Assembly: GCA_963787255.1 (NCBI GenBank)
Contig: CAWBCJ010000029.1
Span: 576,001-640,000, forward strand
Reading direction: 5' to 3'
DNA: 64,000 nucleotides
From: Methanobacteriota archaeon
GTDB taxonomy: Archaea; Methanobacteriota; Methanobacteria; Methanobacteriales; Methanobacteriaceae
Shown: positions 4,328 through 59,603 of the stretch, piece after piece
Position numbering within the stretch: position 1 is the stretch's first letter
Layout of the letters: each line of letters starts with the position of its first letter
The notes under the pieces: model-generated
What the model was told of the DNA's origin: nothing
Seen by the model: only the letters and a program-made list of their open reading frames with translations
The model's database searches: none
Translations under genes and position numbers: made by a program

Positions 4328-4345
4328 GAAAATCCTCCTTTGAGG

Positions 4346-4738: not shown

Positions 4739-4739
4739 T

Positions 4740-6549: not shown

Positions 6550-6560
6550 GAACTCACCAT

Positions 6561-6703
6561 GTGTATTAATTACACCTTTCTTGATATCTATATATATACA
6601 TTTTTACTAAAATCAAATAGAAAGGCTTAAATATTAAAGTGTATTATCCACACTTCCACAATCTTTCTTGTGTTACTTCACTCTAAATGTGTATTAACAA
6701 CAT
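6561..6703. promoter_or_regulatory. fwd promoter region with three 15-bp imperfect palindromes (GTGTATTAnnnACAC/T)
   Basis: GTGTATTAATTACAC 6561-6575, GTGTATTATCCACAC 6639-6653, GTGTATTAACAACAT 6689-6703; TATA-like TATATATA run at about 6589-6598. Confidence 0.65.
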
Positions 6704-6816
6704 AAACAAAAAAAATAAAATTTAATGCAACAAATTCTTTTAAACATAAAACAGGATAAAAAAACACAAAATAAAATATATTAGTTAATAAAATTGATTT
6801 AATATATTAAATCAAA

Positions 6817-7095
6817 TTATTCGTCTTTAGCTTCAAGGGTGCATTTTTTATCTTCACATTCGTGTTCAACCTCAATAATAAAATCTTTGGATTTTTCTAA
6901 ATCAATGCAGGTTAACCCTTTAATTGTTTCGCCTTGCACTTCAAGTTGAATAATCCCATCATTGTTGGTTATTACTCTACCTGGAATATAACATCTTCCA
7001 AGAGATAATCTTATAATATCTCCAGGTTTAACTTCTTTTTCCACATATTCGCATATTTCATCACAGCTTACGCAAACATTTTCCTCTTTTTTCAA
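6817..7095 (-). CDS. Conserved methanogen hypothetical protein (DUF2097-like)
   Basis: VKPGDIIRLSLGRCYIPG pattern; probable TTG start at 7095 behind a GGTGAT RBS. Confidence 0.7.
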   Translation of the reverse strand: MKKEENVCVSCDEICEYVEKEVKPGDIIRLSLGRCYIPGRVITNNDGIIQLEVQGETIKGLTCIDLEKSKDFIIEVEHECEDKKCTLEAKDE

Positions 7096-7315
7096 GATAT
7101 CACCTATTGAAATTGGATACTGTAATTTATTGTTTTTCATGATTAAAAAACATACTATAAATTTCAAAAATTAACTTTTAAATCATCATTAACTTTTTTA
7201 GATATTTAGATTGCCTTTTCATAGCTTCACACTTTTAGACAATTCATCTTCTAAATCATTAAAATTAAAAATTTTTGGAAAAAAAACAATAATATCTAGG
7301 TGATAATAAATTATT

Positions 7316-9028
7316 TTAGAATTCTTCCATTTCTTCCAATTTCATTAAACTTTCAACAGCTTTAACCTCAACAGGAATACCCTCTTCCATAATAGCTGCT
7401 ATGGGATTTAAACCACCAGGAGTCACAATACCTACATGATATCTTTCTATTTTGGCATTATAAACAAGTTCACTGGGTTCTCCAATTTTAAGTACTGAAA
7501 AACCTGAATCCCTAATTTTTTCTATAACTTCAATAGCCTTAGGGCGGGCAAGATATGGAATTTCCCTTAAACTTGCAAGAATCCTTCCAGTTCCGTTTAG
7601 GGTGTCTAGAACTGATGTCATATTCTTTGAAATGTAAATTTCGTGTGGATCAAGAGATGAACCACTATATGCGGTTAATTCTACAAAACGAGGGTTTTTT
7701 TCTTCAATTTCGAGAATTCCTCCGTATCGGGGAGTTGTTAAAATTTCATTCTTGGTTAATATTCCATCCACGGTAAAACTGCATACTGTTGCAATTCCTG
7801 TCCTATTCCCGTCTGAATGTGGCAGTATTTTATAAAATTTACTTGTACAGTATTCGGGTCTGGAACGGAAGACATTGTCAATGATTTCAAGCGCATCATC
7901 AAGGTTGTCGTTATTTATGTAGGAAACATTTACAATAACTTTGCCCTTATGGGATTCTACATCTAAATCAACATTGTATATTAGGTTCCATGCCTTTGAA
8001 AGTAAAAATTTGACTTTTTCACTGGTTTCAGGGCCGGTTGTCTTTAATACAGGCTTTGTAGAAGTTAATTTATCCATTTCTTGAAATTCCATTATATTTT
8101 CTGCTAATTTAATGTTAACATCGCATCCTGCTTCTTTTGCAGCGCAAAGTGGGGCTATTCCCCCTGTTATTGCAATACCTACCATGTCATCATCTACAGG
8201 AATGCCTAAAACGGATTCTCCACTTTCACCAATCTTTAAAAGTCCGGAGACACTTATTTTTTGAAGCTGCTGGAATAATTTAACAGCACTATCCCTAGCT
8301 GCAGCTGGAATTATCCTGAAATTTGCAGGAATCATCCCATCACCTTCTCTTGCTACTTTAAGGACTGAAGTCATTTGTTTTGCAGTAAATGCTTCAAGGG
8401 GAGTCATGGATGTATGTTTATATGCTATAAGTTCGGTAAATCTAATTGGAACGTAATCTTCAACTTTTATTAGGCCTCCATACTGGGGAATTACTGGTAT
8501 TCCTTCTCTTAAAAGCATTCCGTCTATTGTAGTTCCGCAAATAGTGTCTAATCTAACTTCATTTTGGCCCGATGCATTTGCATTGTCTGATTCTATTTTA
8601 GAAAGTTTAACGTAGGGGCTTACTGCAATGTTTTTTCCAAAAACTTCTTTAATTATGTCAATAACCTTTTCATCGTAAATAAATCCGGATGTATTCACAA
8701 CAACAGTTCCTTTACCGTTTCGTGGGTTTAAAGAAGTTTGATATATCATTCCTTCAAATTTAGAGAAAGCAAAATCAACTTGATCATAAATAAGTCCTTT
8801 TTCAAGTTCTTTTAATCCCTTTTCTGTAATTTCTCTACCTGCGTATCCGATACGTTCTGTAAATCCTTTTTCATCCAGTATACGCATGTGATATCGCACT
8901 GCACGCTCTCCAAGATTATAACCTTTACGTTTTAATTCTTCTGCAATTGTCTTTGCACCTAGTACTTTATCTTGGTCTGCAAGTATTCTCAGGATTTCTA
9001 TCATTTTACGATCGGTTTCATCAGGCAT
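7316..9028 (-). CDS. nrpR: Global nitrogen repressor NrpR (wHTH plus two NRD/DUF128 domains)
   Basis: GERAVRYHMRILDEKG wHTH; duplicated YGG..RFxELxAY and GGxxPxxAxxE motifs; adjacent to glnA. Confidence 0.93.
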   Translation of the reverse strand: MPDETDRKMIEILRILADQDKVLGAKTIAEELKRKGYNLGERAVRYHMRILDEKGFTERIGYAGREITEKGLKELEKGLIYDQVDFAFSKFEGMIYQTSLNPRNGKGTVVVNTSGFIYDEKVIDIIKEVFGKNIAVSPYVKLSKIESDNANASGQNEVRLDTICGTTIDGMLLREGIPVIPQYGGLIKVEDYVPIRFTELIAYKHTSMTPLEAFTAKQMTSVLKVAREGDGMIPANFRIIPAAARDSAVKLFQQLQKISVSGLLKIGESGESVLGIPVDDDMVGIAITGGIAPLCAAKEAGCDVNIKLAENIMEFQEMDKLTSTKPVLKTTGPETSEKVKFLLSKAWNLIYNVDLDVESHKGKVIVNVSYINNDNLDDALEIIDNVFRSRPEYCTSKFYKILPHSDGNRTGIATVCSFTVDGILTKNEILTTPRYGGILEIEEKNPRFVELTAYSGSSLDPHEIYISKNMTSVLDTLNGTGRILASLREIPYLARPKAIEVIEKIRDSGFSVLKIGEPSELVYNAKIERYHVGIVTPGGLNPIAAIMEEGIPVEVKAVESLMKLEEMEEF

Positions 9029-9113
9029 TTCTTCACCATTAATTTGAATTGTAATGTTATTATTATATTGTAAAAATTAAAATAAAAACCTTTCAATAAA
9101 TTTAAAGAAAAAA

Positions 9114-9165
9114 GCCCTCAAACACAAAAGTGTTTGGGGCACTGAAAATCAAAGATTTTCAAGTG
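9114..9165. terminator. Tandem hairpins between glnA and nrpR
   Basis: GCCCTCAAACAC-AAAA-GTGTTTGGGGC and TGAAAATC-AAA-GATTTTCA, followed by T-tracts on the minus strand. Confidence 0.55.
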
Positions 9166-9180
9166 ATGAAAAACGGGGAA

Positions 9181-10509
9181 TTAGATGTATAAGTATTTCT
9201 CTAATTCGTAATCGAATACTTGTATTCTGTAGTCATCCCATTCTTTTTTCTTAATATCCCTAAATTGAGTGTATATGTGGTCACCTAAAGTGGATTTTAC
9301 TATTTCATCCTTTTCAAGTGCGTGATATGCTTCCCATAGACTGGATGGTAAAGTGCTTATACCCATTTCTGCAAGTTCTTCGATGCTTTTTCCGAAAACA
9401 TCGATTTCTGTTGGTTCTCCAGGGTCAATTTTGTTTTTCATACCGTCTAAACCAGCTTCTAACATGGCAGCAAAGGCCAGGTAAGGGTTACATGATGGGT
9501 CAGGCATTCTTAATTCCACACGAGTACCGTTTCCACGGGATGCAGGGATCCTAACAAGGGTTGACCTATTTTTAAGACCGTAAGCCACATATACTGGAGC
9601 TTCGTATCCAGGTACTAAACGCTTGTATGAGTTAACAGTAGGAGCACAAACTGCTGTTAGGGCTGGAGAGTGCTTTAAGAGACCGCCCATGAAGAACATT
9701 GCTTCTTCAGATAATTGTGTTGGGGTATCAGGGTCGTAGAAAACGTTTTTACCGTTTTTAAATAAAGACTGGTGACAGTGCATTCCGCTTCCGTTTTCTC
9801 CAAAGAATGGTTTTGGCATGAATGTTACTATGTATCCCATATTGTCTACAATTGCTTTTATAGCTTGTTTAAATGTAATTACCGCATCAGCAGTCTTTAA
9901 CGCATGATCAAACTTGAAATCAATTTCATGCTGACCTGGTGCCACTTCATGGTGGCTGACTTCCACGTCAAAGTCTAAAGCTTCAAGATCCATGACAAGT
10001 TGTCTTCTTATATCGGTACCTTGGTCTACAGGCTCTACATCGAAATAAACACCGTTATCATGAGGAATTAAGCGTCCCTCTTCATCTTGATCCATTATGA
10101 AGAATTCTGGCTCAGGGCCGACGTTGTATTCATATCCTGCTTTTTCCGCTTTTTTCAATGCTTTTTTAAGCATGTATCTTGGGTCACCTTCATAAGGCTT
10201 TCCTTCTGGCCAGTATATATCACAGATAAATCTGCAAACACCTTGTTCTTCAGGCCTCCATGGGAGAGCTGAAAAAGTATCAGGGTCTGGTTTTAAGATC
10301 AGGTCACTGTTGTTAATATCTGCAAATCCTTCAACAGAGGAACCGTCGAATAAAAGACCGTCTTTTATTATATCTTCAATTTGATCTGGTTTGTTTAACG
10401 GAATTGCCATGTTTTTTGGAGTTCCGTGTATGTCTACAAACTGCAGCCTTACAAACTTTGTGCCGCACTTTTCAATATTTTCAATAACTTGTCCTATTTT
10501 GTCTGACAT
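9181..10509 (-). CDS. glnA: Glutamine synthetase type I
   Basis: [52 protein letters not shown]. Confidence 0.98.
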
Positions 10510-13252: not shown

Positions 13253-13955
13253 TTACCAGACATGAGGAATAAGTCTATATTTTACCTTCTTTTTGTATTC
13301 ATCATATCCCTTTAATTCTTCCAACAAAACTTTTTCTTCGCCAAATATCCTTCCACAAACTAAAAAAAATACTACAACACCAATTATAATTCCATAAACT
13401 GAACCAAGGAGCAAAGGTGTCCCTATAAAGGACAATATACCTCCAAGATACAGGGGATGTCTTATAAAGCTGTAAACTCCTGTTGATACTACTTTTTGCC
13501 CCCGTTCTTTTTGTATTCTTACAAGTGGTGATAGATAAGTGTTATCCATATATGAATGGATAATAAAATATGCAGATATGATTAAAGCTATTCCTCCAAC
13601 TACTTCAAGCCATAATGGGAAGTTTAGGGTCCACATGAATCGTTTTAGCGTCTAAAGGCATGATTATAAACCAAACAAGAAACAATATAAGTATAGCATA
13701 TACAAAATATTTGTCCCATCTTTTTTCGCCCCCTGTTCCAGGTCTTCTAAACCTTTCAAGGAGTAAATCAGGATCTTTACGGTATAGATAAAAAACAGCC
13801 CCAAAACTAAGCGCTAAAAACCAAATACTGAAGATCCAGCCTTCAATCCAAAACCAGTCACCTGAAATGAAAAGTAAAATTGCTGGAAAGATTAAGATAT
13901 AAATTATGGTCAAGAAAAGTCTGATTTTAGTTATTTTTGGTTTTTCAGTTTCCAT
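13253..13955 (-). CDS. Isoprenylcysteine carboxyl methyltransferase family membrane protein (one frameshift near 13645)
   Basis: Two overlapping ORFs join on removing one base of an A4 run (..PLDAKRFMWT..); VSTGVYSFIRHPLY, EEKVL, YRLIP motifs. Confidence 0.8.
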
Positions 13956-14136
13956 AGGAACATCTCAGTTGGATTTATAGTATTTACTTAAATCTTATTT
14001 TGCTGCGGTTCCAATCAATTTTTCATGAGACTATGATTTTTAAGTGGAATGTTTTGGATCCTTTGTATTATATTGTCCAGTTTAGGGCAGTATAACCTAT
14101 TTTCATCAAACTTTCTAAAGAACGTAAAATTGATTA

Positions 14137-27481: not shown

Positions 27482-28832
27482 TTATTTATTTAAATGTTTT
27501 TTAATAAGAGATATACCCCATTCGGCCATTTCTTTAGCTTCTTCTTTCGTTTTAGCCTCTGCAAAAGCATCTGAATATTGGTTCTGTGCCCGAAGGCCTG
27601 ATTATAACCCATCCTTCATCTTTGATTATTTTAACACCGTCGGTGGTATCTACTTCAAATTCACTTGTTTCAGCAGCAATTTTCTGCATTATTTCCTGTT
27701 TAATGTCGTCTGGGCATTCAATTTTCATTTTTTCAGAATAATAAACCGGTAATTCTTCCACAAGCTTGGAGAGAGGTTTTCCTTCCTTGGCAAGTATTTC
27801 AACAACTTTAGCAGCTGAAAGTGCAGCGTCCCGTCCATAAACAAAATCAGGGAATATTAATCCACCATTTTCTTCGCCACCGAATAGACCGTTTTTATCT
27901 TTTAATTCCCTAGCAACAATTAAATCTCCTACTTTAGTTGCTGTAACTTCACCGTTATATTCATTTGCTATATCATAAATTGCAGTGGAAGTTGCAACTG
28001 TAGTAACGATTAAACCGCCGTTATTTTCTTTAAGCATGTATTTTTCCACAAGTGCAAATGATTTATCGCCAAAAACGAAATTTCCATCCTCATCAATACA
28101 AATAGTACGGTCTGCATCTCCATCATGTGCAAAACCAACATTTGCACCAGTTGCCTTTACAACTTCAATTAATTCCTTAAGATTGGGTTCGGTTGGTTCA
28201 GGATCTCTACCTGGAAAAAATCCGTCCGGCTGACAATTCATGGTAATAACTTCACATCCAAGCTCTCTTAAGATGTATGGTGTTGTAAAACAGGCAGCTC
28301 CACTTCCACAGTCAACAATTACCTTTAGTTTTGCTTTTCTAATTTCATCTTCATCAACCCGTTTTATAACTTCTTGAATGTATTCTTCAAGGATGCTAGA
28401 GTTGTTTTCTACCTCTCCAATTTTATCCCAGGATACCCTATCCGGATTATCATTAAAGAACATTTCTTCTATCTCTATTTCTGTTTCATCGGGAGTTCCT
28501 ATCCCGTAAGAATCAACCAACTTTAATCCATTGTATTTTGGAGGATTATGTGAAGCTGTAATAATAATTCCTGCATCATAGTAATTCCTGACTGCATACT
28601 GGACAGCAGGGGTAGGTAAATATCCTAAATCGACCACATCACATCCTGAAGAGAGTAATCCAGATATTACTGCATGTTTTATCATTTCTGTAGATGTTCT
28701 GGTATCTCCTCCAACTGCAACCTTTCCTTTTACAAGTGTTCCATAGGATGCAGCGATTTTTGACGCGAATTCAGGCGTTAATTCTGTATTAGCCAACCTT
28801 CTAACTCCAAATGTTCCAAATAATCGTTTCAT
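27482..28832 (-). CDS. glmM: Phosphoglucosamine mutase / phosphomannomutase (frameshift near 27565)
   Basis: FGTFGVR, TASHNP, DGDADR, GEENGG, RPSGTEP; removing one T restores C-terminus ..CFAEAKTKEEAKEMAEWG.. Confidence 0.88.
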
Positions 28833-29067
28833 AATTTTCACTGTCCTGATTTTAATACGATGTTAAAAGCGTTAATTATACTCTTTTTAATATTTTTATA
28901 TTAATATTTTATAACCAAAGATATTAATCAATTTTGTTTAATGATGGCAAAGAATTTTAATAGATTTCAGAATAAACCTTTCCAATGGGCATTTTCTAGA
29001 CATTTTAATTATATAAATAGATTTATAATTATTTATTATACATTAAAAATAAAAAAGATGAAAACAT

Positions 29068-30748
29068 TTAATTTCTAGCATTGAATATGGATTCAACACG
29101 ATCTACAGTATCAATATCATCCAAACTCAAATCTTCCCTGATTCTCTTAACGACAGGGAATCTAAGGGAATAACCGCTTTCATACTCAGGACTTTTAACA
29201 ATTTCGCTGAAGGCCACTTCAATGATGATTTCTGGCTTTGCCTTTACTTTTCTTCCTTTTTTTTCTGTCATAATGCTTTCTACTTTGTTTGAAAGCTCGA
29301 GAAGTGTGGCATCGTCAAGACCTGTGGCTGTATAGGCCATAGTTTTTAAATTTCCTTCTTCATCCTGTGCGGCCATTAGATATGAACCTATAAGATTTGC
29401 TCTTCTGCCTCTACCATATGTCCCCCCGACAACGACTAAATCAAGTGTTTCAGGCTCGGCTTTGAACTTAAGCATCTTTTTTCCCCTTATTCCGGGCATA
29501 TAAGGGGCATAAGGATCTTTTATCATTATTCCCTCGTGGCCACTTTTAATAGAACTTTCAAATAGTTTCTGAGCTTCGTCAACATTTTCAGGAGTAACTA
29601 TAACCTGCTGACTGAGTTCAAATTTGGAAGGCTTGAACTGCAGCAATTTCCTGCAATATAACACGTCTTTCACCAAAAGGCATGTCAATTAGAGGCTCTT
29701 TATAATAAAGAACATCAAATAGGTACATAATAAGGGGAACTTCCTGTCTGAGCCTATCAATTTCATACTTCCTCCGAACCCGTTGTAGAATGTATTGGAA
29801 GGAAATAGGAAATCCTCCCTTTGTTGCTATTATTTCTCCTTCTACAATAAAATCTTCTTTAGGAAGGCATTTTTCTATATATTCTACAATTTCAGGGACT
29901 GCATCTTTTATATTATCAAGTCTTCTGGTGAATATTTTAATATCATTCCCATTTCTGTGAATTTGAACTCTGAATCCATCATATTTTGTTTCACAAATTG
30001 CAGCACCCATTTCTTCTACTGATGTCTTAATATCTGGTGAAAGCTGAGCAAGCATTGGTTTAACGGGTTTACCTGGGTTTAAGTTAAGTTTTTTAAGCCC
30101 TTCTTCTCCTTCACTTTTTGCAACTTCTGCAATAAGTCCTGGATTGTTTGTAAGCATTAAAGCTCTTTCAACAAGTTCCTTATCTACATTAAAAGCTTGC
30201 GAAATGGAATCTTTCAGAGTTCCTTCACCAATTCCTACTCTAAGCTCTTCAACAACAGTCCTTGTAATATATTTTGCTTCTTTTGGCGAAGCAGAAGTTA
30301 AAAGTTCAATGAGAATTCTTAATTTTTTTTGCACAGCATTTTTTCCAGATACATCTGCTATTTTTACCATATTATTGTAAACTTTGCTTATGGTCAATGG
30401 TCTTGTAAAAAGGGTTGATTGAAGTCTGTTACCAAAAAGATGCTCTGAAGCAAGGCCAATATCTCCTTTATCCCTAACACTGTCTTCAACAGTATCTGTA
30501 CTAACACCTACAACTAGAGATATGGCTTTCATTAGCAATTTTAATCCTATACCCATTTCTTTTTCGCTCCATGTGGGAAATACTTTTCCTAAGGATAATA
30601 AAGTGACAATTGGGAGTATTTTAGGGTCAGCGTCCTTTAAAAATTCTGCAAGTATGCTTGTTTTTTCAAGCCTTTTGGTTGTAGAAGTCAGCTCTTCATA
30701 GATGTCTACAAGTTTCTGATACCTCATTTCGCTTTCTAATTCGGGCAT
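29068..30748 (-). CDS. lig: Housekeeping ATP-dependent DNA ligase (frameshift near 29635)
   Basis: PMLAQ, ETKYDGFR, EGEI, EGIMIK, LRFP across two overlapping ORFs. Confidence 0.92.
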
Positions 30749-30901
30749 TTTATCACAGCGTGAATATTAATAATTAAAAATCTCTAACTATTATAGATGG
30801 AATGTTACTCATAAATTTAATTGTTGTTTCTTCCGAATTAAAAAAAAATTTTTAAATTAAAATGTAAAAATATAATTAAAGAGTTATTTAATGGGATTAA
30901 T

Positions 30902-31690
30902 ATGCCGGAATTACCTGAAGTGGAATCATTTGGAAGATATCTTGAAAAGACGTCTCTTAATAAAAAAATCGAAGAAGTAGAAGTAAAAAGTCCTGAACTC
31001 CTGCAAAATATTGATGTTGATAGTTTAAAGGATAAATTGGAAGGCAGCATCTTTAGGCATACTAAAAGACATGGTAAATATCTTTTCGTACTTTTAGATA
31101 ATGATTCGTGGCTTATCTTGCATTTTGGAATGACTGGCAGTTTTAAATATTTCAAAAATGGTGATGAAAAGCCGCTATATGATAGAATACTCTTTAATTT
31201 TGAAGATGATAGTCATCTTGCCTTTAATGATCCGAGGAAGTTTGGAAAGATTCATTTAACTTTTAAAATCTTGGATTTCATTAAGGAAAAGAAATTAGGG
31301 CCAGATGCACTGAATATAGACTTAAAAACCTTTAAAAAGTTATATAATAAACGAAGAGGTGCCGCAAAATCTGCTTTGATGAATCAGCATGTGATGGCTG
31401 GTGTTGGTAATATCTACTCTGATGAAGTACTTTATCAGGCTTGTGTTCATCCTAAAACTTCCTTTAATGCTTTAAACGATGCTAAAATAACAGAAATATT
31501 CAATATAATGAAAAAAGTTTTAGATACAGCAGTATATAGGCAGATGCATGGTCAGAAACTTCCAGATTCTTATTTGATTCCTAATAGGATAAAAAATGGT
31601 AAATGTCCTGATTCGGATATAAAGTTAAAAACACTTAAAATTGCAGGTAGAACTTCTTATTATTGTCCTGAATGTCAAAAAGAAGATTGA
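30902..31690 (+). CDS. Fpg/Nei (MutM-like) DNA glycosylase/AP lyase
   Basis: N-terminal PELPEV, RHGKYL, HFGMTG, DPRKFG, H2TH AGVGNIYSDE, GRTSYYCPECQ. Confidence 0.92.
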   Translation: MPELPEVESFGRYLEKTSLNKKIEEVEVKSPELLQNIDVDSLKDKLEGSIFRHTKRHGKYLFVLLDNDSWLILHFGMTGSFKYFKNGDEKPLYDRILFNFEDDSHLAFNDPRKFGKIHLTFKILDFIKEKKLGPDALNIDLKTFKKLYNKRRGAAKSALMNQHVMAGVGNIYSDEVLYQACVHPKTSFNALNDAKITEIFNIMKKVLDTAVYRQMHGQKLPDSYLIPNRIKNGKCPDSDIKLKTLKIAGRTSYYCPECQKED

Positions 31691-32221: not shown

Positions 32222-32767
32222 ATGAAACTTAAAAGACTTTGCGAAATTGCCAGTACCTGCACAGAATGCCCTCTACATGAAAGCAGAACCAAAGTAGTTT
32301 TTGGCGAGGGTCCTGAAGATGCAAAAATCATGCTTATTGGTGAAGCACCCGGAAAAAACGAGGACGAAACCGGAAGGCCCTTTATTGGAATGGCTGGGAG
32401 ATTATTAAGCGAAATACTCCATGAGGCAGACCTTGATCGGTCTGAAATTTACATTACATCCATAGTTAAGTGTAGACCCGAAGGGAATAGAAAGCCTAAG
32501 AAACCCGAATACAGCACTTGCATAGCGCTTTATCTGGAGAAGCAAATCGAGATAATAAATCCAAATATAATTGGATTGCTCGGAAACAGTGCAGCATATG
32601 CTTTAATTGGTAAAAAGAACATTAAGCAAATCCATGGAAAAACCTACGAATTAAACGGTAGAAAATACATGGCATTGTTCCATCCTGCTGCAGCTTTATA
32701 TTCTCGTGCACTCCTTCCTCAATTGAAAGATGACATGATAACTTTAAAAAGACAGATTAAATCTTAA
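32222..32767 (+). CDS. udg: Family-4 uracil-DNA glycosylase
   Basis: CTECPL, GEAPG..ED..GRPF.G.AG, KCRP, HPAA. Confidence 0.93.
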   Translation: MKLKRLCEIASTCTECPLHESRTKVVFGEGPEDAKIMLIGEAPGKNEDETGRPFIGMAGRLLSEILHEADLDRSEIYITSIVKCRPEGNRKPKKPEYSTCIALYLEKQIEIINPNIIGLLGNSAAYALIGKKNIKQIHGKTYELNGRKYMALFHPAAALYSRALLPQLKDDMITLKRQIKS

Positions 32768-32887: not shown

Positions 32888-33616
32888 TTAGGAATATACT
32901 ATTTCTTTTAAAGCCAAACAGTTTTTGGGAGCATTGGCTTTATAATCATTATTAAAATAACAGAAACTTTTTTTTGAATCTAATTTTTTAATATTTTTTC
33001 CCCATTTCTCCAGCTCTTTTTGTGAATAGGAATAACGGTATCTATCAGGACCTTTACCGTGAAAACGGACATATGTAATATCTGAAGTGGTTATAATTTC
33101 TTCTGGAAGGTCAGAAGATGAAATTGAACAGAATCCTACATTAAATTCTTTTAAAAGCTCGTAAATTTCATCATCAAACCAGCTTAAATGTCTGAACTCT
33201 ATAATGTTGCTTTTTGAGGAATCTAACTGGTGGAGTGCATTTTTTAAAAAATCAATATCTTTAGACTTCTGGGGAGGAAACTGGAATAATATACAGCTTA
33301 ATTTGTTTTCAAGGATTTCTGCAAGCCTATAAAACCGATTTATTGCGCTTTCTGTATTTTTAAATCTTTTTCTATGTGTAATAATCTGATTAGCTTTTAA
33401 AGTAATCAAAAATTTATCTGGCGTCCTATTATACCATCCCTTAACAGTTTTTTCTGTTGGAAAGCGGTAAAATGTGTTATTCACTTCTATGGTGTTAAAA
33501 TACCTTGAATAATATTCCAGCCATTTTGATTTACTTAATTTTTCAGGGTAAAAACGCCCTTCCCAGTCGTTATAGTACCAGCCGGAACAACCTAGAAAAT
33601 ATCTATTCTCCGTCAT
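32888..33616 (-). CDS. DUF72 family protein
   Basis: GCSGW.Y..W, EVNNTFYR.P, KA..ITH, LFQFPP, EFRH.SW, YVRFHG, YFNND. Confidence 0.92.
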   Translation of the reverse strand: MTENRYFLGCSGWYYNDWEGRFYPEKLSKSKWLEYYSRYFNTIEVNNTFYRFPTEKTVKGWYNRTPDKFLITLKANQIITHRKRFKNTESAINRFYRLAEILENKLSCILFQFPPQKSKDIDFLKNALHQLDSSKSNIIEFRHLSWFDDEIYELLKEFNVGFCSISSSDLPEEIITTSDITYVRFHGKGPDRYRYSYSQKELEKWGKNIKKLDSKKSFCYFNNDYKANAPKNCLALKEIVYS

Positions 33617-33669: not shown

Positions 33670-33948
33670 TTATTTTATTCCATGCTGTTTTTCGTAGTTT
33701 CTCCATGATTGTGCTACTTCAGGTGCATCGCTTTCCAGGTCGTTTATTATCTCGTTTCTAAGTTCTTTAGAGCTTATTTCGTTTCGATTCATTGCAAGTT
33801 TTTCTGCATCTCTTGTAGCGTGTTCAATTGCTTTCATTTGCTTGGTTACGGTAAATCCTGCGTCTGTAACAGCACTTTCAATGGATTTCCTTAATTTTTG
33901 GGGTTTGAATTGTTCTTTTTTTCCATTTCTTTTAATAACATCTGTCAT
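33670..33948 (-). CDS. Stand-alone ATP-cone domain protein
   Basis: VIKRNGKKEQFKPQKLRKSIESA signature. Confidence 0.85.
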   Translation of the reverse strand: MTDVIKRNGKKEQFKPQKLRKSIESAVTDAGFTVTKQMKAIEHATRDAEKLAMNRNEISSKELRNEIINDLESDAPEVAQSWRNYEKQHGIK

Positions 33949-34089: not shown

Positions 34090-34371
34090 TTAATATTTCA
34101 TTCCATGAGTTCTTTCGTAGTTTCTCCAGGCCTGGGCAACCTGCTGATCATCCTGTTCCAGATCCCTTAATACAGTGTCCCGTATTTGTTTAACTTCAAT
34201 TTGGTCCATTCCTCTGGCCATTTGGGTAGCATCCTGTGAGGCGTGCTCTATAATTTCTCTTTTTTCGCTAATATCGAATCCTGCATCTTTAACAGCGCCT
34301 TCTACGGACATTCTTAATTTTTCTTCTCTAAACATTTCTCTTTGGCCGTTTCTCTTTATAACATCTGTCAT
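34090..34371 (-). CDS. Stand-alone ATP-cone domain protein (tandem paralog)
   Basis: VIKRNGQREMFREEKL; GGAGGT RBS before ATG 34371; shares VAQxWRNYE..HG ending with neighbour. Confidence 0.85.
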   Translation of the reverse strand: MTDVIKRNGQREMFREEKLRMSVEGAVKDAGFDISEKREIIEHASQDATQMARGMDQIEVKQIRDTVLRDLEQDDQQVAQAWRNYERTHGMKY

Positions 34372-34576
34372 ATAATACCTCCTTAAATCGGATCGCAAAA
34401 AATGATTTTGCAATACCAATTATATTAAATTATTTTAATTTAGTATTACTTTTTTATGATCATCAAAATATAAAAGAGTTTACATTGGCCCTAGAAAAGT
34501 ATTAAAAATAAGTGATTTAAGGGAATTATTAGGCTCAAAAAAAACCATAAATTTCTGTTATATAATAATTAGAGAT

Positions 34577-36344
34577 TTAAATTCCTTTATACATCTGTAA
34601 AATTTCATCTGTAGTGGTCGCCTGTTCGGGAGACTTTTCAGCACGCCATCTAATGAAACGGGGGAACCTTAAAGCCAGCCCCTGCTTTTCAGTGCTGTTC
34701 CAGTTGCAGGTGTGAACAGGACTTTTAGTAATTTCAGATCCAAGAACTTCTACAACATATTTTGGATTAAACCAGAAATCGGGCTCCATTTCACGAGAAA
34801 CAATAGCCCTCGCGGGTTTTCGATCTACTCTTGCATCAAGAAGCTTTTGAGGCATTTTTTCCAGTTCATCATCAGAAAATCCAGTTCCCAGCTTACAAAC
34901 AGTCTGGAATGTATCATCATCAAAATTATAAGCAGCACATAAAACCGCACCATAAGTACCGCTACGCCGACCACGTCCGGAATAAGCTCCTAAAATGACT
35001 AAATCAAGGGTATCTGAGAGTTTGGACATGTATTCTTTTTTCCATTTAATCCATGTCCAGTCTCTTCCTCCAGCATGGTAAAAAGAATCTTCTGCACATG
35101 ATTTACAGACAATACCTTCCAAATTCTTATTTAAGCATTCCTGGAAGAATTCATCTATATCATCAAGGTTGGAACTGACTTTTCGATGGGCTAAAGTAAT
35201 GTACTTTGATTTTTCTATTGTTGTTTCAAGTTTTTCACGCCTTTCAGGGTAGCTTGTATGTAAATAAGATTTTCCATCAGCATAAAGAATATCAAAAAGC
35301 ATGTATCTAACTGGAATAGTTTTCTGGTATTCCACGACTTTATATTTTCTTCTTCTCTGCATTAACTCCTGGAAAGACCCAAATATATCATTTTCAAAGT
35401 CATAAGCCATTGCTTCTCCGTCTAAAATCGTTTTTTCTATTTTAACGTACTTTTTAATGTTGTCAACAAGATCAGGAAACTGTTTGGTAACATCGGTCAG
35501 TCTACGGGAAAAAAGTTTCACATTATCATGGGATTTATGTGCCTGGATTCTCTCGCCGTCAAACTTTTCCTCAGCAGAGATATCATGGGACTTGATTTTA
35601 TGGCGTATTTCTTCAAATTTAGATACTCTTTGGGCCAGCATGGCTTTAATAGGCCGGTTAATGGTAATTTTTATATTTTTTACTCCTTTTAATCCACTTT
35701 CCTTTAAAACCTTTGCCACAAATCCTATATCTGAGCTAATGTTGTAGGCATGTTCAAGTTCTGTTTTTTTCTTTTTAGAACCAAAAAATGAGACTGACAA
35801 AGCGTTAAGAATGGTCATATCTCCTGCACCAAGCCTCATAGTGCCTTCAGCAAATCTAGCTATGTATTTTTTACCAATTTCACAGGCTTCAATAAGCATT
35901 GAAGCCAAAGTTCTGATTTTAATTTCTTGGGATCCCTTTCCTCTTGTTAAAGCGATTTTTCTAAAACCTTCAAATACATCCTTAACAGATAGTTCTCCTT
36001 TATAATCAAAATAATCTTTAAATGGATTGGGTCCCTTTTTAATCATTTGAGCGGCTACTTGCCCAATATCGCCAATGTTGCGAGTTTTTTCTTCAACTTC
36101 ACTTTTGGGAGTACTGCTTGCAAGTGATATTGCTGATTGAACCGTTTTTTCGCTTAAACCAAGCACAATATCCTCATATCCTGGTGCAATTCTGCCCATC
36201 AGCAGGTAGCAAATTTCATCTATCTCATGAGACACCTGATTTTTTAAAAATAGCAGCTAGAATGTCAACCATTTCATTTTGTGAGCTTGTTTTTTCAAGC
36301 ATTTCCAAATTCTTTGCAAATTCTTCGAATTTAATTTTTATCAC
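34577..36344 (-). CDS. Second full-length ATP-dependent DNA ligase (frameshift near 36240)
   Basis: KFEEFAKNLEMLEKTSS N-terminus in alternate frame; AMLAQ, EEKFDGER, DGEA, EGIVCK, WIKWK, LRFPRF. Confidence 0.9.
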
Positions 36345-37282
36345 CTGAATCTTTCAGGTAAATTCTTTTCAAATTGGTTCAGATTTTCAATAATGTTTGG
36401 GGGTTTACAATTTACCAGTTTTTTTGCTAAATCTTCCTCATAAAGCATTTTTTCCTTTAGAGGCAAAGATACTCCGTCTATGGTTTTTGCATCTTTCATG
36501 TGCAGAGAACCTAATGGAACACGGCTTAACTTACCTGAAGGGGTCTGTGATGGGTCTATATTAATCGAATTTCCACGTCTTTCGTGACCGCCCACAACTC
36601 TAAATTCTACCTGCTCATCAACCTTTTTAGCCCATTTACCGGTGAAATTACGTTCTGGGTCCTGCTTTGAATACTGGAAATATTTTTCATAGAATGAATT
36701 TGGTTTAGTTTCATCTAAAAAGAAGAAAACGTGGAATGAATTACCAGTCCAGCTAATAAATGGCTCAAAGTTTTCCATAAGTTCTTCAAATTCATTATCT
36801 TCATTTATAGTTTCAATAAACAAACGTGTGGCTTTCTGGACCTGTTCCGCAGAAATTCCTTCGACTCTGTCTATATCAAAGAATATACGATCTATTTCTT
36901 TACCAGGGCCTTCAGAGTTGGTGGCGTAAAAGAAATCTGCAAGTTTTCTAGGGAGAAAATACTGCCAAACTTTATTTTGGATATCATCCAACTCTTTTTT
37001 TGCATCTTTTAGATGTTCTTCTCTTGATCTAAGCTCTAAAAATTCTAAATCAACGGCTTCTATAAGTTCGTCCACGTATAAAGGCTTTAATTTGGACCCT
37101 CTTTTAAGTAAATATCTTACTTTTCCACGGGGCATCCATATCTTGCCTGCAAGTTCTTTATCCTTTAAATATTTCTTTAATTTTGTTGCAGAAACTGCAT
37201 ATAGCAGTAAAACGTCAATTTCTCCAAAAGGAGTTATCAATTTATCTAGATTTTTTTTGGCAAAGTTTAAAAGTGATGTCAT
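36341..37282 (-). CDS. Divergent archaeo-eukaryotic primase (AEP) superfamily protein, putative primase-polymerase
   Basis: Motif I FFDID, motif II WTGNSFH, motif III NIDP..RVPLGSLH; stop abuts or overlaps the ligase start. Confidence 0.68.
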   Translation of the reverse strand: MTSLLNFAKKNLDKLITPFGEIDVLLLYAVSATKLKKYLKDKELAGKIWMPRGKVRYLLKRGSKLKPLYVDELIEAVDLEFLELRSREEHLKDAKKELDDIQNKVWQYFLPRKLADFFYATNSEGPGKEIDRIFFDIDRVEGISAEQVQKATRLFIETINEDNEFEELMENFEPFISWTGNSFHVFFFLDETKPNSFYEKYFQYSKQDPERNFTGKWAKKVDEQVEFRVVGGHERRGNSINIDPSQTPSGKLSRVPLGSLHMKDAKTIDGVSLPLKEKMLYEEDLAKKLVNCKPPNIIENLNQFEKNLPERFR

Positions 37283-42838: not shown

Positions 42839-44708
42839 ATGTTTGATTATGAAAAACTTGGACTTAAAATGGGTCTTGAAGTACACCAACAATTAAATAC
42901 GAATGAAAAGCTTTTCTGCCCATGCAAATGCAATTTAACTGATAAAAAACCAGAATTTAAGATTTTAAGGAACCTCAGGCCAACACAGAGCGAGCTTGGG
43001 AAAATTGACAGAGCAGCATTTGAAGAGTCAAGAAGGAAATTAAATTTTATTTACGAAGCATATACTCATGAAACATGCCTTGTCGAAGCAGATGAAGAGC
43101 CACCTCACCCTTTAAACTTAGAAGCACTTGAAATATCTCTTATATTGGCAAGCTTACTTAACATGCATGTTGTAGACGAATTTCACCTCATGAGAAAGCA
43201 GGTTATTGATGGAAGTAACACTGGAGGTTTTCAAAGGACAGGATTAGTTGCAACCGAAGGAATTCTTGAAACAGAGTACGGTGAAGTTGTAATTGAGAAC
43301 CTTTGTCTGGAAGAAGATGCTGCTAGAAGAATAGGGCATGAAAAAGGCATGGTTACATTTAGACTGGACAGACTTGGAATTCCTCTTGTAGAAATAACTA
43401 CATCTCCCTCAATGAAACATCCAGAGCAAGTAAAGGATGTAGCATATCAAATTGGTCAAATATTAAGAAGTACTAAAGTTAAAAGAGGTTTAGGCACTAT
43501 ACGTCAGGATTTAAACATTTCAATTAAGGAAGGCGCAAGGGTGGAAATAAAAGGAGTTCAAGAATCTTGATCTAATGCCAAAAATGGTTGAAAATGAAGT
43601 TAAAAGGCAAATAAATCTTTTAAAAATAAGAGATGAACTACTGAAAAGAGATGCATCAGTTGAAGATGACTTGTACGATTTGACAGATGTTTTAAGTGAA
43701 ACAAGCTCTAAAATCATATCAAAAGCTGAAAGTGTCTTTGCAATTAAACTTAACGGATTTAGAGGATTAATTGGGATGGAAATACAGCCGGGAAGAAGAT
43801 TTGGAACAGAACTTGCAGTATACGCTAAAAAAATGGGAGTATCTGGCCTTTTCCATACAGACGAGCTACCAGCATATGGAATCACAGGAAGTGAAGTAGC
43901 AGCCTTAAATGATTTTATGGGCATTGGTGAAGAAGATGCATTTATTTTAGTTGCTGATAATCTCGAAAAGGTTGAAAATGCCCTGCAGGAAGTCCAAAGA
44001 AGGGCAAGAATGGCTTTAAAAGGAGTACCTGAAGAAACACGAAAAGTAACGCCTGAAGGAAACACTGAATACTTGAGACCTCTTCCCACAGCAAGTAGAA
44101 TGTACGTTGAAACGGATATTCCGGCCAAAAGTATATCCCGCGGCTTGCTTGAAGATATTAAAGCTAATTTACCCGAACTTCCAGAAGAAAAAAAAGCTAG
44201 AATAATTAAAGAGTACAATTTAAGCGAAGATCTTGCAGCACAGCTTGTAAGGACTGATAGAGTAAATAGTTTCGAAGAAATTAAAGCAGAAACAAATGCA
44301 GACTCTACAACGCTTGCTTCAACGCTTGCTTACACTTTAAAAGAATTAAAAAGAGATGGATGTTCTGTAGAGGAACTAAACAATAATGCAATGGTTGAGG
44401 CATTCAATCTTTTAGGAAATAGTAAAATTTCTAAGGATGCAATCCCTCAAATTCTGGAAAATGTATGTAAAAAAGGTAATTCGCCACAAAAAGCAGCAGA
44501 AAGTCTTAATTTGATCATGCTATCTGCAGAGGATGTTGAAAAGATAATAATTGAGATAGTAGAGTCCAATAAAGCAATGGTGGATGATCGTGGAATGGGT
44601 GCAATGGGGCCGCTCATGGGAGTGGCAATGAAAAAACTTAAGGGAAAGGCCGACGGTAAGCTGGTGAATAAACTTTTGAAAGATAAAATACAGAATATAA
44701 TAAGTTGA
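42839..44708 (+). CDS. gatE: Glutamyl-tRNA(Gln) amidotransferase subunit E (frameshift near 43563)
   Basis: [32 protein letters not shown]; removing one A gives ..GVQDLDLMPK..; RMYVETD, Yqey tail. Confidence 0.94.
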
Positions 44709-46971: not shown

Positions 46972-49900
46972 TTATAGTCCTGTTGTGAAACTGAATGTGT
47001 AAGCTGCACAATTGTTTCCTGCGCTATCTTTAATAGCTCCTGCTGGAATGTACACTTGGAATAATGTGCTAGCTGCTCTTCTATTTGTTGAGATTGTTAA
47101 AGTATTTCCTGAAATTAATTTGCTAATTGAAAGTACACTTCCTGTTTTCATGTTTTTAACGTATATTTGTGACCAATTAGTGCTTGATTTAATATTTTCA
47201 CCGAATTGAATAACTATGTTACTTCCTCTTGAAACTCCAGTAGTTCCATTTTTAGGAGTAATAGAGACCACTATCGGTGCTGTTTTATCTATTGTATATG
47301 TTTCAGTATAAACTGGAGAATGATTACCTGCTAAATCATAGGCAATAAACTTCAAGGTAGTAGTTGAACTTATTGTTATAGGTCCAGTGTACATTAAGCT
47401 TGTTTTAGTTGGTGTAGTTCCATTTAACGTGTAATAAATTGTTCCTGCTTCATTCATTGTAAGGGTAATTAATTTATCAACATTATATGTCCCTGTTTTG
47501 ATGTCTGCACTTGCTGTTGGGGGTGTGGTGTCTTGAATTGTGGTGAAATTGCTGCTGAAAGCAGTTATGTTATTTCCAGCTAAGTCAGTTATTGAGTTTG
47601 CTGGCAAATTAATAATGTATTTAGTTCCTAGAGCGTAACTTGCACTGTTAGTTAGTGTTAAAACATTACCACTAATGGATTTGGTTATGCTTGTTACTAT
47701 TGCGCCGTTATTGGTTATGTTGATATTATTGTATGCTGTTCCTGATTTTATTGCTTCATTAAAGGTTATTTTGATTATTTTGTTGACTGCAACGTTTGTA
47801 GAACCATTAGCTGGATCTACACTTGTAATGCTTGGAGCAGTTGTATCTGTAACAGGATTACCTGCTACTTCATGGTACCATTCGTTAACAGTTAATGTTT
47901 TAACTCCAATTTGAGAAATATATTGGATTAAACCACTGAAGTTGGATATGGTCCATTGCCAGTCATTAGGGTTACTTGCAACTATTTCGTGTAGTAGTAT
48001 CATGGCGGTTGTGTTTGCTGATATTGCACCATCAACAATTGATTTAGCCTGATCTAAAGTATGATATCCGGTGATTCCATTAATTTCTTTATCTGGAAGC
48101 TGTAGTAAATCCGCAGGGGGATTAGTTATATAACCTTCGTTTATTGTTCTATGAATCAGTACTCCCAATTCACGTAATACTCCTAGTAACTCATCATTAT
48201 ACGCTCCATAAGGGCTTGCAAAATAATAAGCACCATCTGAAAATCCGTTATTATTAAGCCAAGTTATAGCTGTCTGAACTTCAGAAACTTTAGCTGTCCT
48301 ACTTAATGTCGTAAGATCTATATGCTCATTGGCATGGCTTGCTATAGTCCATCCGGCATTATGTAATTCCTGAAGTTCTGCTAAAGTCATATACCAAGGA
48401 GTTCCGATATATGCAGTATTAATAAATACGGTTCCTTTGATTCCGTATTGTTTCATTATTGGGTATGCATTTAGATATATTGATTCAGCTCCGTCATCAA
48501 AGGTTATAACTATCTTGGGGGTTATGGCAGGATTTGCAGCGTTCATTGTAGTGAAATTGCTGGTAAATGCGGTTATGTTATTTCCTGCTAGGTCGGTTAT
48601 TGAATTGGCTGGCAAGTTAATAACGTATTTAGTTCCTATAGCGTAATTTGCACTATTAGTTAATGTTAAAACGCTACCGTTAATGGATTTGGTTATGCTT
48701 GATACTACTGCACCGTTATTGGTTATAGTTGATGCTATTGTATGCTGTTCCTGCTTTTATTGGTTCATTAAATGTTATGTTGATAATTTTATTAAGTGGA
48801 ACGTTTACTGCATTGTTTACTGGGTCAATACCTGTTATTGTAGGCGGTACATTATCTTGAATTGTGGTGAAGTTGCTGGTGAAGGCAGTTATGTTATTTC
48901 CTGCTAGGTCGGTTATTGAGTTTACAGGCAAGTTAATAACGTATTTTGTTCCTATAGCGTAACTTGCGCTGTTAGTTAGTGTTAAAACATTACCAGCTAA
49001 TGGATTTGGTTATGCTTGATACTATTGCGCCGTTATTGGTTATATTGATGCTATTGTATGCTGTTCCTGCTTTTATTGCTTCATTAAAGGTTATTTTGAT
49101 TACTTTATTGACTGCAACGTTTATAGCACTATTAGCTGGATCAACACTTGTAATATTTGGAGCAGTTGTATCTGTAACAGGATTACCTGTTACTTCCTGG
49201 TACCATTCGTTAACGGTTAATGTTTTAACTCCAGTTTGAGAAATATATTGAATTAATCCATTAAAATTAGCTTACACTCCACTGCCAGTTCGCCATCTTC
49301 ACCAGAAGCAATTACTGGAAGTATTTCGTGTAGTAGTATGATAGCGGTTGTGTTTGTGGATATTGCACCATCAACAATTGATTTAGCCTGAGCTAAAGTA
49401 TGATATCCGTCAACTCCATTTATTTCTTTATCTGGGAGTCGTAATAAATCAGCAGGAGGATTTGTAATGTAACCATCTTCTACTGTTCGATGGATTTTTA
49501 TTCCTAATTGACGTAATACATCCAATACTTCATCATCGTATGATCCATATGGTCTTGCAAAATAATATGCACCATCTCCAAATCCATTACTATTAAGCCA
49601 ATTTATAGCTGTTTGAACTTCAGAAACTTTATTTGCTCTACTTAATGTTGTAAGATCTAAATGTTCATTTCCATGGTTTGCTACGGTCCATCCGGCATTA
49701 TGTAATTCTTGAAGTTCTGCTAGGGTCATATACCAATCGTCTCCAATAAAAGCCGGATTGACAAATACGGTTCCTTTGATTCCGTATTGTTGCATTATGG
49801 GATATGCGTAGGTATATACTGATTCAGCTCCATCATCAAAGGTTAAAACTATTGTTCCATTTACACTGTTGGCTGCAGCTAATGCTGATACACTACTTTC

Positions 49901-50260
49901 AGTGTAAGTTAATTCTTGGGTTGGACTAGAACTAGTGGTTACTGCCGAATTATTGGAAGAATCAGCCACATCTTCATTAGTTTTTTGTGTAGGCGTTGTA
50001 TTTGAGGATGCAGTAGTTAGTGTTTTGTTTGATTCGCTTGTTGGTGTAGGGGACGAATTTTGGGTATTATCATAATTTGTGGTGTTCGTTATTGTAGAAT
50101 TGTTATTTCCAGAATCATTAGCATAAGTATTGTCTCCAGTAACTGCAGAAACTTCACTAATACTTATGCTGAATGCCAAAGTCAGGAGCAACAAAAAAAT
50201 AATGATTTTATTTTTATGTCTAAAATTTGTAAAATTACTTAAAATTTCACGATTTTTAAT
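46972..50260 (-). CDS. Large secreted protein: two polysaccharide deacetylase (CE4/NodB) domains, several Ig-like repeats and a chitobiase-C-like domain; several frameshifts
   Basis: TFDDG, HxNEH, LLHE twice; repeated SITDLAGNNITAF.SNFTT; TIYYTLNGTTPT; frame breaks near 49290, 49270, 48995, 48720. Confidence 0.8.
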
Positions 50261-59315: not shown

Positions 59316-59603
59316 GTGATATTGTTGGTAAAAGTAGTAAAAAGAAAGGGCAAAATTGAATCATATACTCCTAATAAGATTAGAGGCGCTCTCGAGAAAG
59401 CGACCATCGATGCTGGTTACACTGTGGAAGAAAAGAAGGATTTAATAGATGAAATATATACTAAAATCAATAAAAAGTTTGAAAAAGAAGGGAAAATTAA
59501 GAGCGAAAATATCAGGATGTGTCTTCTAACTGAACTGGATGAATGCGAACCATACATAGCTAAATCGTGGAGAACATTTGACAAAAGATATAAATCACAA
59601 TAA
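59316..59603 (+). CDS. Stand-alone ATP-cone domain protein (third copy)
   Basis: VVKRKGKIESYTPNKIRGALEKA, IAKSWRTFD. Confidence 0.82.
   Translation: MILLVKVVKRKGKIESYTPNKIRGALEKATIDAGYTVEEKKDLIDEIYTKINKKFEKEGKIKSENIRMCLLTELDECEPYIAKSWRTFDKRYKSQ

Follow-up and report, generated by a model that had tools for sequence, protein, structure and literature searches.

A divergent, stand-alone LigD-type primase-polymerase encoded beside a DNA ligase in Methanobacterium, and its candidate role in archaeal excision repair

Introduction

Which enzymes fill and seal the short gaps that excision repair opens in archaeal DNA? To our knowledge, the polymerase that fills such gaps is unclear in most archaea, and the question is raised in a concrete form by a stretch of 64,000 nucleotides (hereafter the window) from a Methanobacteriota archaeon of the Methanobacteriaceae (GenBank assembly GCA_963787255.1, contig CAWBCJ010000029.1, positions 576,001 to 640,000 of the forward strand). 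The window encodes a protein of 313 amino acids (36341..37282, minus strand, ATG start), here called the polymerase, and the end of its gene overlaps the start of a gene for an ATP-dependent DNA ligase (34577..36344, minus strand), here called ligase 2. A reading of this region made by a model from the letters alone (the sequence-only reading) had proposed a distinct primase-polymerase/ligase pair. The analysis described below assigns the 313-residue protein, which stands alone and has diverged strongly, to the LigD-type primase-polymerase lineage, in the superfamily of archaeo-eukaryotic primases (AEP). By analogy with the mycobacterial Prim-PolC/LigC system, the polymerase and the ligase may constitute a Ku-independent excision-repair module that fills and seals gaps, a reading to which a probability of about 0.6 is assigned.

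The Polymerase Belongs to the LigD-Type Lineage

The catalytic centre of AEP enzymes is built from three motifs, a DxD (motif I), a histidine within a sequence of the sGxGxH type (motif II) and an aspartate (motif III). In the polymerase these are represented by FFDID (D136, D138), WTGNSFH (H184) and IDPSQ..RVPLGSLH (D243), and the order of the motifs together with their near-invariance confirms what had been read from the sequence. Residues D136, D138, W178-T179-G180, S182-F183-H184, D243 and R254/P256/L260/H261 are invariant across 40 homologues and remain invariant or at least 90% conserved in a set of 43 more diverse ones. The open reading frame (ORF) is real and conserved, and its motifs are not the product of chance.

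The family is poorly annotated. Scanning the 313-residue protein against Pfam (E ≤ 0.1) and NCBIfam gave no match, and neither the window protein nor a profile built from its low-diversity alignment (A1) found anything meaningful among PDB sequences, the best matches being unrelated proteins at E 0.12 and 0.72. At E ≤ 1e-3, 355 homologues were retrieved; all 120 of them that were listed bear the source name "hypothetical protein", the label that the sequence-only reading had anticipated, and are without a precomputed Pfam domain. When 1.84 billion representatives were searched with a profile, 111 matches at E ≤ 0.001 came back, all of them members or fragments of the same family with no distant kin. 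The family is thus a small one with sharp limits. It comprises about 50 full-length archaeal clusters at 50% identity.

The assignment rests on structure and on profile comparison. The AlphaFold (AF2) model of the polymerase is of high quality, with a predicted local distance difference test score (pLDDT) of 91.8 and a predicted TM-score (pTM) of 0.89. Compared with solved structures by VIA-align, it matched best the LigD polymerase domain (PolDom) of Mycobacterium tuberculosis (2iru; Z 15.0, root-mean-square deviation (rmsd) 4.0, 223 residues aligned), that of Pseudomonas aeruginosa (2fao; Z 14.9), mycobacterial Prim-PolC (6sa0; Z 14.9, rmsd 3.6, 237 aligned) and the polymerase for non-homologous end joining (NHEJ) of Methanocella (5dmu; Z 14.4, rmsd 3.5, 234 aligned), and the PriS/Pri1 primases followed next at Z 8.9-10.6. 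The best 13 rows of this comparison (Z 15.0 to 6.6) are AEP-type by entry title, with the exception of HP0184 (2atz), which has no functional title. Foldseek gave a concordant picture: the best matches were all M. tuberculosis LigD PolDom (E 1.2e-6), PriS/Pri1 entries appeared at E 0.016 or worse, and the 21 matches listed at E ≤ 0.001 are all AEPs. The comparison by AlphaFold and Foldseek, which had been suggested along with the sequence-only reading, therefore returned an AEP fold, and the catalytic motifs are retained in it.

The profile evidence points in the same direction. Aligned by hhalign with 24 sequences of PF21686 (LigD_Prim-Pol), the family scored a probability of 96.1% (E 3.2e-9, 229 columns), with FFDIDR placed on FFDIDP, WTGxSFHV on TSGKKGLHV and IDPSQTPSGKLxRxPxSLH on VDYxQNSHGRTMxCPYSLR; the N-terminal segment aligns as well, and the catalytic residues D136, D138, H184 and D243 fall on the equivalent residues of LigD-Pol. 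The 43 diverse members reached 92.5% (E 4.8e-7) against a single LigD-type Pol versus 47.8% (E 1.9e-4) against the PriS of the window's own genome. The signal needs a diverse alignment (A4), since the low-diversity A1 gave only 6.65% against the single LigD-type Pol. PF21686 is matched directly by 25 of the 43 relatives at E ≤ 1 (best 1.4e-12), and, judged by these sequence matches, the family touches the edge of that Pfam model. The nearest cluster in the ESM Atlas (score 0.98) has 230 members, 98% of them from Archaea and 11% with PF21686, and a scan of the window polymerase with PF01896 (PriS) gave no match.

The higher fold scores and profile probabilities obtained with LigD-type enzymes therefore make the polymerase a divergent LigD-type primase-polymerase and not a PriS-like one. 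In this respect the sequence-only reading was wrong: it had held that RxPxSLH resembles PriS more than LigD-Pol and had contrasted this stretch with the corresponding LigD motif, but the stretch aligns in register with the "PYSLR" of LigD and both the fold (Z 14.4-15.0 vs 8.9-10.6) and the profiles (92.5% vs 47.8%) favour LigD.

Ligase 2 Overlaps the Polymerase and Is Intact in Relatives

A ligase gene lies directly downstream of the polymerase in 12 of the 14 Methanobacterium loci collected. The proposal of a distinct primase-polymerase/ligase pair stands as regards an AEP enzyme with an adjoining ligase, but not in the PriS-like character given to the former. In the window the two genes share the sequence GTGA (36341..36344, minus strand), in which the TGA stop of the polymerase (36343-36341) and a GTG codon of the ligase (36344-36342) have two bases in common. 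The pentamer GGTGA at this point is present in 6/6 aligned sequences, and five Methanobacterium loci (L002, L003, L005, L008, L013) have a single ligase ORF of 587-588 amino acids that begins with a 4-nt overlap of the polymerase stop. One transcript presumably encodes both polymerase and ligase 2; AT-rich sequence may mark the promoter, and a run of eight T about 33 nt past the ligase 2 stop (34537..34544, minus strand) is a possible archaeal terminator of this unit. Structure prediction for a complex of the two proteins (alignments A1 and A5) scored 0.00 in two runs without controls and is neutral on binding.

Ligase 2 is a three-domain enzyme (Pfam DNA_ligase_A_N, A_M and A_C) that matches TIGR00574 with 478.8 bits against a cut-off of 217.8, and its best solved relative, 2hiv, matches over the full length (E 1.2e-151). 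As far as we know, LigC and LigD ligases lack the N-terminal DNA-binding domain, and LigC has two domains only. The full-length ligase of about 590 amino acids with this domain, as described in the sequence-only reading, is found in the relatives (588 amino acids) and all three domains are encoded in the window, but here the gene is split over two frames; likewise, the overlap noted there between the TGA and a GTG exists, but the GTG, said to be in frame, is out of frame with the body of the ligase in the assembly (36344 to 34577 is 1768 nt). The GTG frame runs for 39 amino acids to a TGA and matches positions 1-33 of 174 of the Pfam ligase N-terminal domain (E 0.0031). The body lies in another frame (34577..36235/36256; 552 amino acids from the first start, 559 from stop to stop) and holds the rest of the N-terminal domain together with the adenylation and OB domains.

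The break is due to one extra base at about 36232..36234 (minus strand). Aligned with five Methanobacterium relatives, the window shows a surplus of one base at this junction, and a protein of 588 amino acids that is 99% identical to ligase 2 (P0351) continues unbroken across it, thus placing the extra base in a GGTGTCT stretch. Contigs from four soil-metagenome runs of four studies, which contain at most 48% of the sampled words, were aligned to the region. Contigs X1 and X7 do not reach 36232-36234; only X2 and X6, which stem from two studies, span these positions, and each is one base short there, at 36234 in X2 (0 mismatches over 436 nt) and at 36232 in X6 (15 mismatches over 727 nt). Because an intact and 99% identical protein exists, both covering contigs are without the base and other genes of the window are split alike, the extra base is most likely an assembly error and not biology. 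The alternative, that the frameshift is real and that ligase 2 is a pseudogene or is read through by slipping, so that the pair would not be functional in this organism, has in its favour the assembly as given; it is very improbable in view of an otherwise identical contig without the base, of the intact relative and of the similar breaks seen in GatE, in a surface protein (46975-50260, four pieces) and in ligase 1. A programmed frameshift at an A-run in ligase 2 was considered and dropped, since one base must be skipped and the intact relative places the extra base in the GGTGTCT stretch.

A second ligase of the window, ligase 1 (about 29068-30766, minus strand), is of the type found elsewhere in the order and is 31% identical to ligase 2. 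Its presence had been noted in the sequence-only reading and is confirmed, though it too is split by a frameshift, near 29633-29655. The comparison of the two ligases by phylogeny that had been proposed there was carried out and separates them: the polymerase-adjacent ligases cluster (100/100) with ligases of Lokiarchaeota, Bathyarchaeota, Thermoproteota and Methanomicrobiales, apart from Methanobacterium ligase 1 and from the sole ligases of four DPANN genomes.

Further genes of the window look interrupted. GatE (42839-44705, plus strand), a protein needed by methanogens, is divided into two overlapping ORFs by an apparent extra T near 43551-43567; the surface protein mentioned above, of the Big_5/polysaccharide-deacetylase type (minus strand), consists of four overlapping ORFs; a PEMT-like gene (13256-13964, minus strand) of two; and the phosphoglucomutase (27555-28862, minus strand) has its last domain truncated. 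Read from the sequence, these several single-base frame changes point to indel errors in the assembly, which consists of 29 contigs and is 95.05% complete.

Distribution and Genomic Context of the Polymerase

Relatives of the polymerase are encoded in 102 genome stretches, 80 of which (14 from Methanobacterium and 66 from other archaea) were kept for locus counts. Besides Methanobacterium, the kept loci come from DPANN archaea (Micrarchaeota, Aenigmatarchaeota, Woesearchaeota, Pacearchaeota and Nanoarchaeia), Altiarchaeales, Hadarchaeota, Hydrothermarchaeota and Bathyarchaeia, and from single bins of Methanocellales, Methanosarcinales and Archaeoglobales. Among 151 genomes sampled from the window's order the polymerase occurs in nine, that is, in 9 of the 10 of the window's genus and in none of the 141 spread over 26 other genera; a wider sample of the order (11 of 201 genomes) again shows a single genus. 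The polymerase tree groups the Methanobacterium sequences in a single clade (support 99) that nests in a supported set of 22 sequences together with two Hadarchaeota-like loci (L032, L043), two Altiarchaeales and three uncultured archaea.

In the window the gene order is polymerase, ligase 2, two ATP-cone genes, DUF72, a uracil-DNA glycosylase superfamily protein (UDG), Fpg and ligase 1. Stand-alone ATP-cone proteins (PF03477) are encoded in tandem downstream of ligase 2 at 34090..34419 and 33670..33948 (minus strand). They are followed by DUF72, a protein with a xylose-isomerase-like TIM barrel (32888..33616, minus strand; PF01904, E 1e-68), by the UDG (32222..32767, plus strand; PF03167) and by a bifunctional DNA glycosylase of the Fpg/Nei type (30902..31690, plus strand; PF01149 and PF06831). 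DUF72, UDG and Fpg lie within 6 kb of the polymerase, and within 7 kb when ligase 1 is included. The UDG is present in 13 of the 14 Methanobacterium loci and in L043, two or three ATP-cone genes follow the pair in all 14, and housekeeping genes (ThiC, glutaredoxin, ferredoxin-thioredoxin reductase) are neighbours of the polymerase in conserved order. Conceivably, the ATP-cone proteins act as sensors of ATP or dATP that control the repair genes, or tune the pathway to nucleotide pools. In the window, each protein of the tandem has about 92 residues, and a third copy is found at 59316-59600 (plus strand).

Outside Methanobacterium, neighbours were searched with Pfam in 69 ORFs and, in the remaining loci, with profile hidden Markov models for the LigD 3'-phosphoesterase (PE) and HhH-GPD only, together with phmmer using ten query proteins (Fpg, UDG, DUF72, ATP-cone, UvrB, FEN1, ligase and metallophosphoesterase). 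The commonest neighbour there is a stand-alone PE (12 of the 80 loci), which is found immediately upstream of the polymerase and on the same strand in L019, L021, L037, L043 and L064; an HhH-GPD glycosylase occurs in seven of the 80. UvrB follows the polymerase, co-oriented with it, in two Altiarchaeales bins (L022:6704-8665, L030:7000-8940), FEN1/XPG lies upstream of it in L031, and RadC is a neighbour in L047. A recognised repair gene flanks the polymerase in at least 19 of the 66 non-Methanobacterium loci, and the others have varied housekeeping neighbours. A ligase is directly downstream in two of the 66 (L032 and L043), and L019 and L045 show partial or minimal ligase-like matches only.

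The most instructive locus is the Hadarchaeota-like L043, which brings most of these families together in a tightly packed operon on one strand, with DUF72 (4176-5432), PE (5150-6004), the polymerase (6001-6948), Fpg/Nei (6899-7738) and a ligase of 588 amino acids (7743-9509), the UDG (2941-3486) being located just upstream. These are the same families as in the window in another order, Fpg being placed between polymerase and ligase.

Some features of individual lineages may be added. The polymerase-UvrB order of the two Altiarchaeales bins hints at a link with nucleotide excision repair in that lineage. Seven loci of Woesearchaeota/Pacearchaeota encode a protein of about 129 amino acids in the same orientation as the polymerase and one to four genes downstream of it (L039:7736-8119, L040:7138-7527, L050:6880-7272, L052:3157-3522, L061:6885-7274, L045:7799-8203 and L059:3635-4012); three of these proteins were scanned and all match PF18894 ("putative phage metallopeptidase"), and a tie to DNA-protein crosslink repair is conceivable.

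Genome-Wide Partners and Co-Inheritance With DUF72

The genome of the window encodes a canonical PriS elsewhere (PF01896, E 4.8e-15) and a stand-alone PE about 120 kb from the polymerase; Ku (PF02735) was not found in this genome, at the completeness given above, nor among the scanned neighbour ORFs. Five other genomes that bear the family all have a PriS-type match, which exceeds the cut-off in three, as well as one or more full-length ligases elsewhere. In addition to the polymerase family, the Hydrothermarchaeota genome that contains L047 has a canonical operon (L095:609-3267) encoding PE (212 amino acids), a LigD-type Pol (271 amino acids) and Ku (265 amino acids). Since both coexist in one genome, the family is not a simple replacement for the NHEJ polymerase.

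Within the sample of 151 genomes of the order, DUF72 is present in ten, which include all nine with the polymerase (1.3-5 kb away from it) and one of the 142 without; PE is present in 15 (8/9 with the polymerase and 7/142 without), and Fpg in 50, including 9/9 with the polymerase. DUF72 is thus co-inherited with the polymerase in this order. For the structural model of DUF72 (pLDDT 88.5), the best matches are solved structures of the DUF72 family (Z 26.6 and 24.7). In the passages cited, DUF72 is described as closely related to UV-damage endonuclease and enriched near polB2 (PMC11791011), and a role like that of endonuclease IV is predicted (PMC3828134). The protein is a candidate DNA-repair enzyme.

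A Candidate Excision-Repair Module and Its Alternatives

Each enzymatic step of the proposed module, as well as the choice of excision repair over end joining, is what we infer from this evidence. A glycosylase (Fpg/Nei or UDG, both encoded within 6 kb) would remove the damaged base, and Fpg would leave a gap of one nucleotide with phosphates on both sides. The blocked 3' end would then be cleaned, for which the stand-alone PE of the genome or the neighbouring DUF72 protein are the candidates; PE is reported, in the cited part of the study, to be a 3'-phosphatase and ribonucleoside-resecting enzyme (PMC3082917). The primase-polymerase would fill the short gap, and the nick would be sealed by ligase 2 or, in its absence, by ligase 1. 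A wider claim, that the island represents a complete and as yet undescribed archaeal excision-repair route composed of a glycosylase (Fpg/Nei, UDG or HhH-GPD), PE and/or DUF72, polymerase and ligase and shared by Methanobacterium, Hadarchaeota-like and many DPANN archaea, can be put forward only tentatively.

Several observations weigh against the proposed module. As regards the pairing, L001 has no ligase 2, the ATP-cone genes following the polymerase directly, and L012 retains only a C-terminal remnant of about 120 amino acids (35% identity, L012:7097-7447) in place of a full ligase; the extra ligase is therefore dispensable in some Methanobacterium strains. In 62 of the 66 non-Methanobacterium loci, flanks of up to 6 kb per side yielded no ligase-like sequence, and the adjacency is confined to one subclade. 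About 47 of these 66 loci have no recognised repair gene nearby, as judged from the 69 Pfam-scanned ORFs and, for the rest, from the few profiles and queries used. As regards the enzyme itself, the window polymerase does not match PF21686 at E ≤ 1, and a lysine of the N-terminal segment that is invariant in LigD-Pol (position 21 of alignment A3), which we take to belong to the 5'-phosphate pocket, faces a gap in the polymerase family, so that gap recognition may differ. The window polymerase does align an N-L-D-K stretch with the N-L-D-K of LigD, a stretch that is not conserved across the family. In Prim-PolC, the 5'-phosphate-binding pocket is described, in the passage cited, as an Asn and two Lys near the N-terminus (PMC5663958). 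Finally, Fpg is common in genomes without the polymerase (41/142), and, since a single genus accounts for every genome of the order that has the polymerase, their co-occurrence counts are not independent and show co-inheritance of the island rather than independent events. For DUF72, the structures that rank next after its own family are AP endonucleases and UVDE (Z 13.5-15.4), which tie with sugar epimerases and isomerases (Z 14-16.5), and the fold therefore does not decide its function.

Among the alternatives, the same pair may act mainly in Ku-independent repair of double-strand breaks by microhomology-mediated end joining, as the LigD PolDom does. The closest folds include NHEJ polymerases (2iru, 2fao, 5dmu), the PE that accompanies the polymerase in 12 of the 80 loci is itself a module of LigD in NHEJ, and an archaeal primase can mediate break repair according to the cited portion of PMC12019639. 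We regard this as unlikely, considering that Ku was not found in a genome that is 95% complete, that the genome behind L047 possesses a PE-Pol-Ku operon besides the polymerase family, which argues that the two are not redundant, and that the neighbours are glycosylases, UvrB and FEN1 and not end-binding proteins. Damage tolerance of the PrimPol kind, in which the enzyme would act at stalled forks by repriming or lesion bypass, with the ligase as an incidental neighbour, would agree with the intact catalytic centre of an AEP fold and with a polymerase that stands alone in most loci. It appears a distinctly weaker prospect, given a LigD-Pol-like fold that covers the 313 residues with no zinc-finger, PriCT or helicase module, an overlapping ligase start that is conserved, and a commonest neighbour, PE, whose end-cleaning activity, as described in the cited part of PMC3082917, fits gap repair.

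The polymerase could also be imagined as belonging to an integrated plasmid or virus and serving it as replication primase, a view to which its confinement to one genus within the order and the membership of many AEP families in mobile elements, mentioned in the cited part of PMC5862659, would lend some colour. This is hardly credible: a scan of 2.9 million viral contigs of IMG/VR revealed no relative of the polymerase, a structure search of the viral models of BFVD gave weak matches only (best E 1.2e-4, TMq ≤ 0.37), and the polymerase is surrounded by housekeeping and repair genes in conserved order, with no integrase or helicase beside it. Altogether, the Ku-independent filling and sealing of excision gaps is the reading that we prefer.

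Implications and Comparison With Known Systems

If this reading is correct, archaeal excision repair acquires a concrete set of partners consisting of polymerase, ligase, PE, Fpg and DUF72. The wider claim of a complete route, if true, would also name partners that a 2011 study of archaeal PEs could not find, in the cited passage of which no Ku and no clustered repair partners were known for these enzymes and the pathway could not be guessed (PMC3082917). The widespread DUF72 family would become a candidate for DNA repair and, on the wider claim, receive a first function, as an AP-endonuclease-like or 3'-end-cleaning enzyme. The polymerase family, so far labelled hypothetical, now finds its place in the LigD primase-polymerase lineage, and the pair may be of practical interest as a compact system to fill and seal gaps. 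The use of a LigD-type polymerase and a ligase in excision repair is already known from mycobacteria; in open-access papers and preprints no description was found of this polymerase family, of its pairing with a three-domain ligase or of the linkage to PE and DUF72, and a description in a subscription journal is possible.

The comparison with PriS/Pri1 (PF01896) shows the fold of the superfamily and the catalytic motifs I and II in common. In contrast, the fold and profile matches are weaker, the PriS of the genome is encoded elsewhere and no PriL-type partner lies beside the polymerase. The NHEJ polymerase of Methanocella paludicola (5dmu) is likewise archaeal, stand-alone and of the same fold, and reportedly forms a canonical NHEJ set with Ku, PE and a ligase. 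It differs in that no Ku was found in the genome of the window and in that one genome carries both the polymerase family and a canonical PE-Pol-Ku operon, which makes the family a separate lineage.

The LigD PolDom of M. tuberculosis and P. aeruginosa (2iru, 2fao; PF21686) provides the best fold and profile matches, and the PE and ligase modules of LigD appear as neighbours in archaea. The archaeal polymerase, however, is not fused to a ligase, has an invariant H261 instead of the arginine of motif III, fails the Pfam model and offers no partner for the invariant N-terminal lysine, and its setting in the window's genome is again one in which no Ku was found.

The closest parallel is the Prim-PolC/LigC system of mycobacteria (PDB 5op0, 6sa0). 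According to the passages cited, the genes for Prim-PolC and LigC share a transcript with that for FPG in several mycobacteria and are located near UvrB; FPG leaves a 3',5'-biphosphate gap from which EndoIV removes the 3'-phosphate, Prim-PolC binds 5'-phosphorylated gaps of 1-3 nt and fills them with ribonucleotides, and LigC seals them (PMC5663958). Both systems have a stand-alone LigD-type primase-polymerase adjacent to, and co-oriented with, an ATP-dependent ligase, and a genomic link to Fpg and other excision-repair genes, in the window's case in a genome in which no Ku was found. They differ in their hosts, archaeal in the case described here, and in sequence, the similarity being seen by profile methods only. 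The archaeal partner ligase has three domains, and the conserved extra partners of the archaeal system are a stand-alone PE and DUF72.

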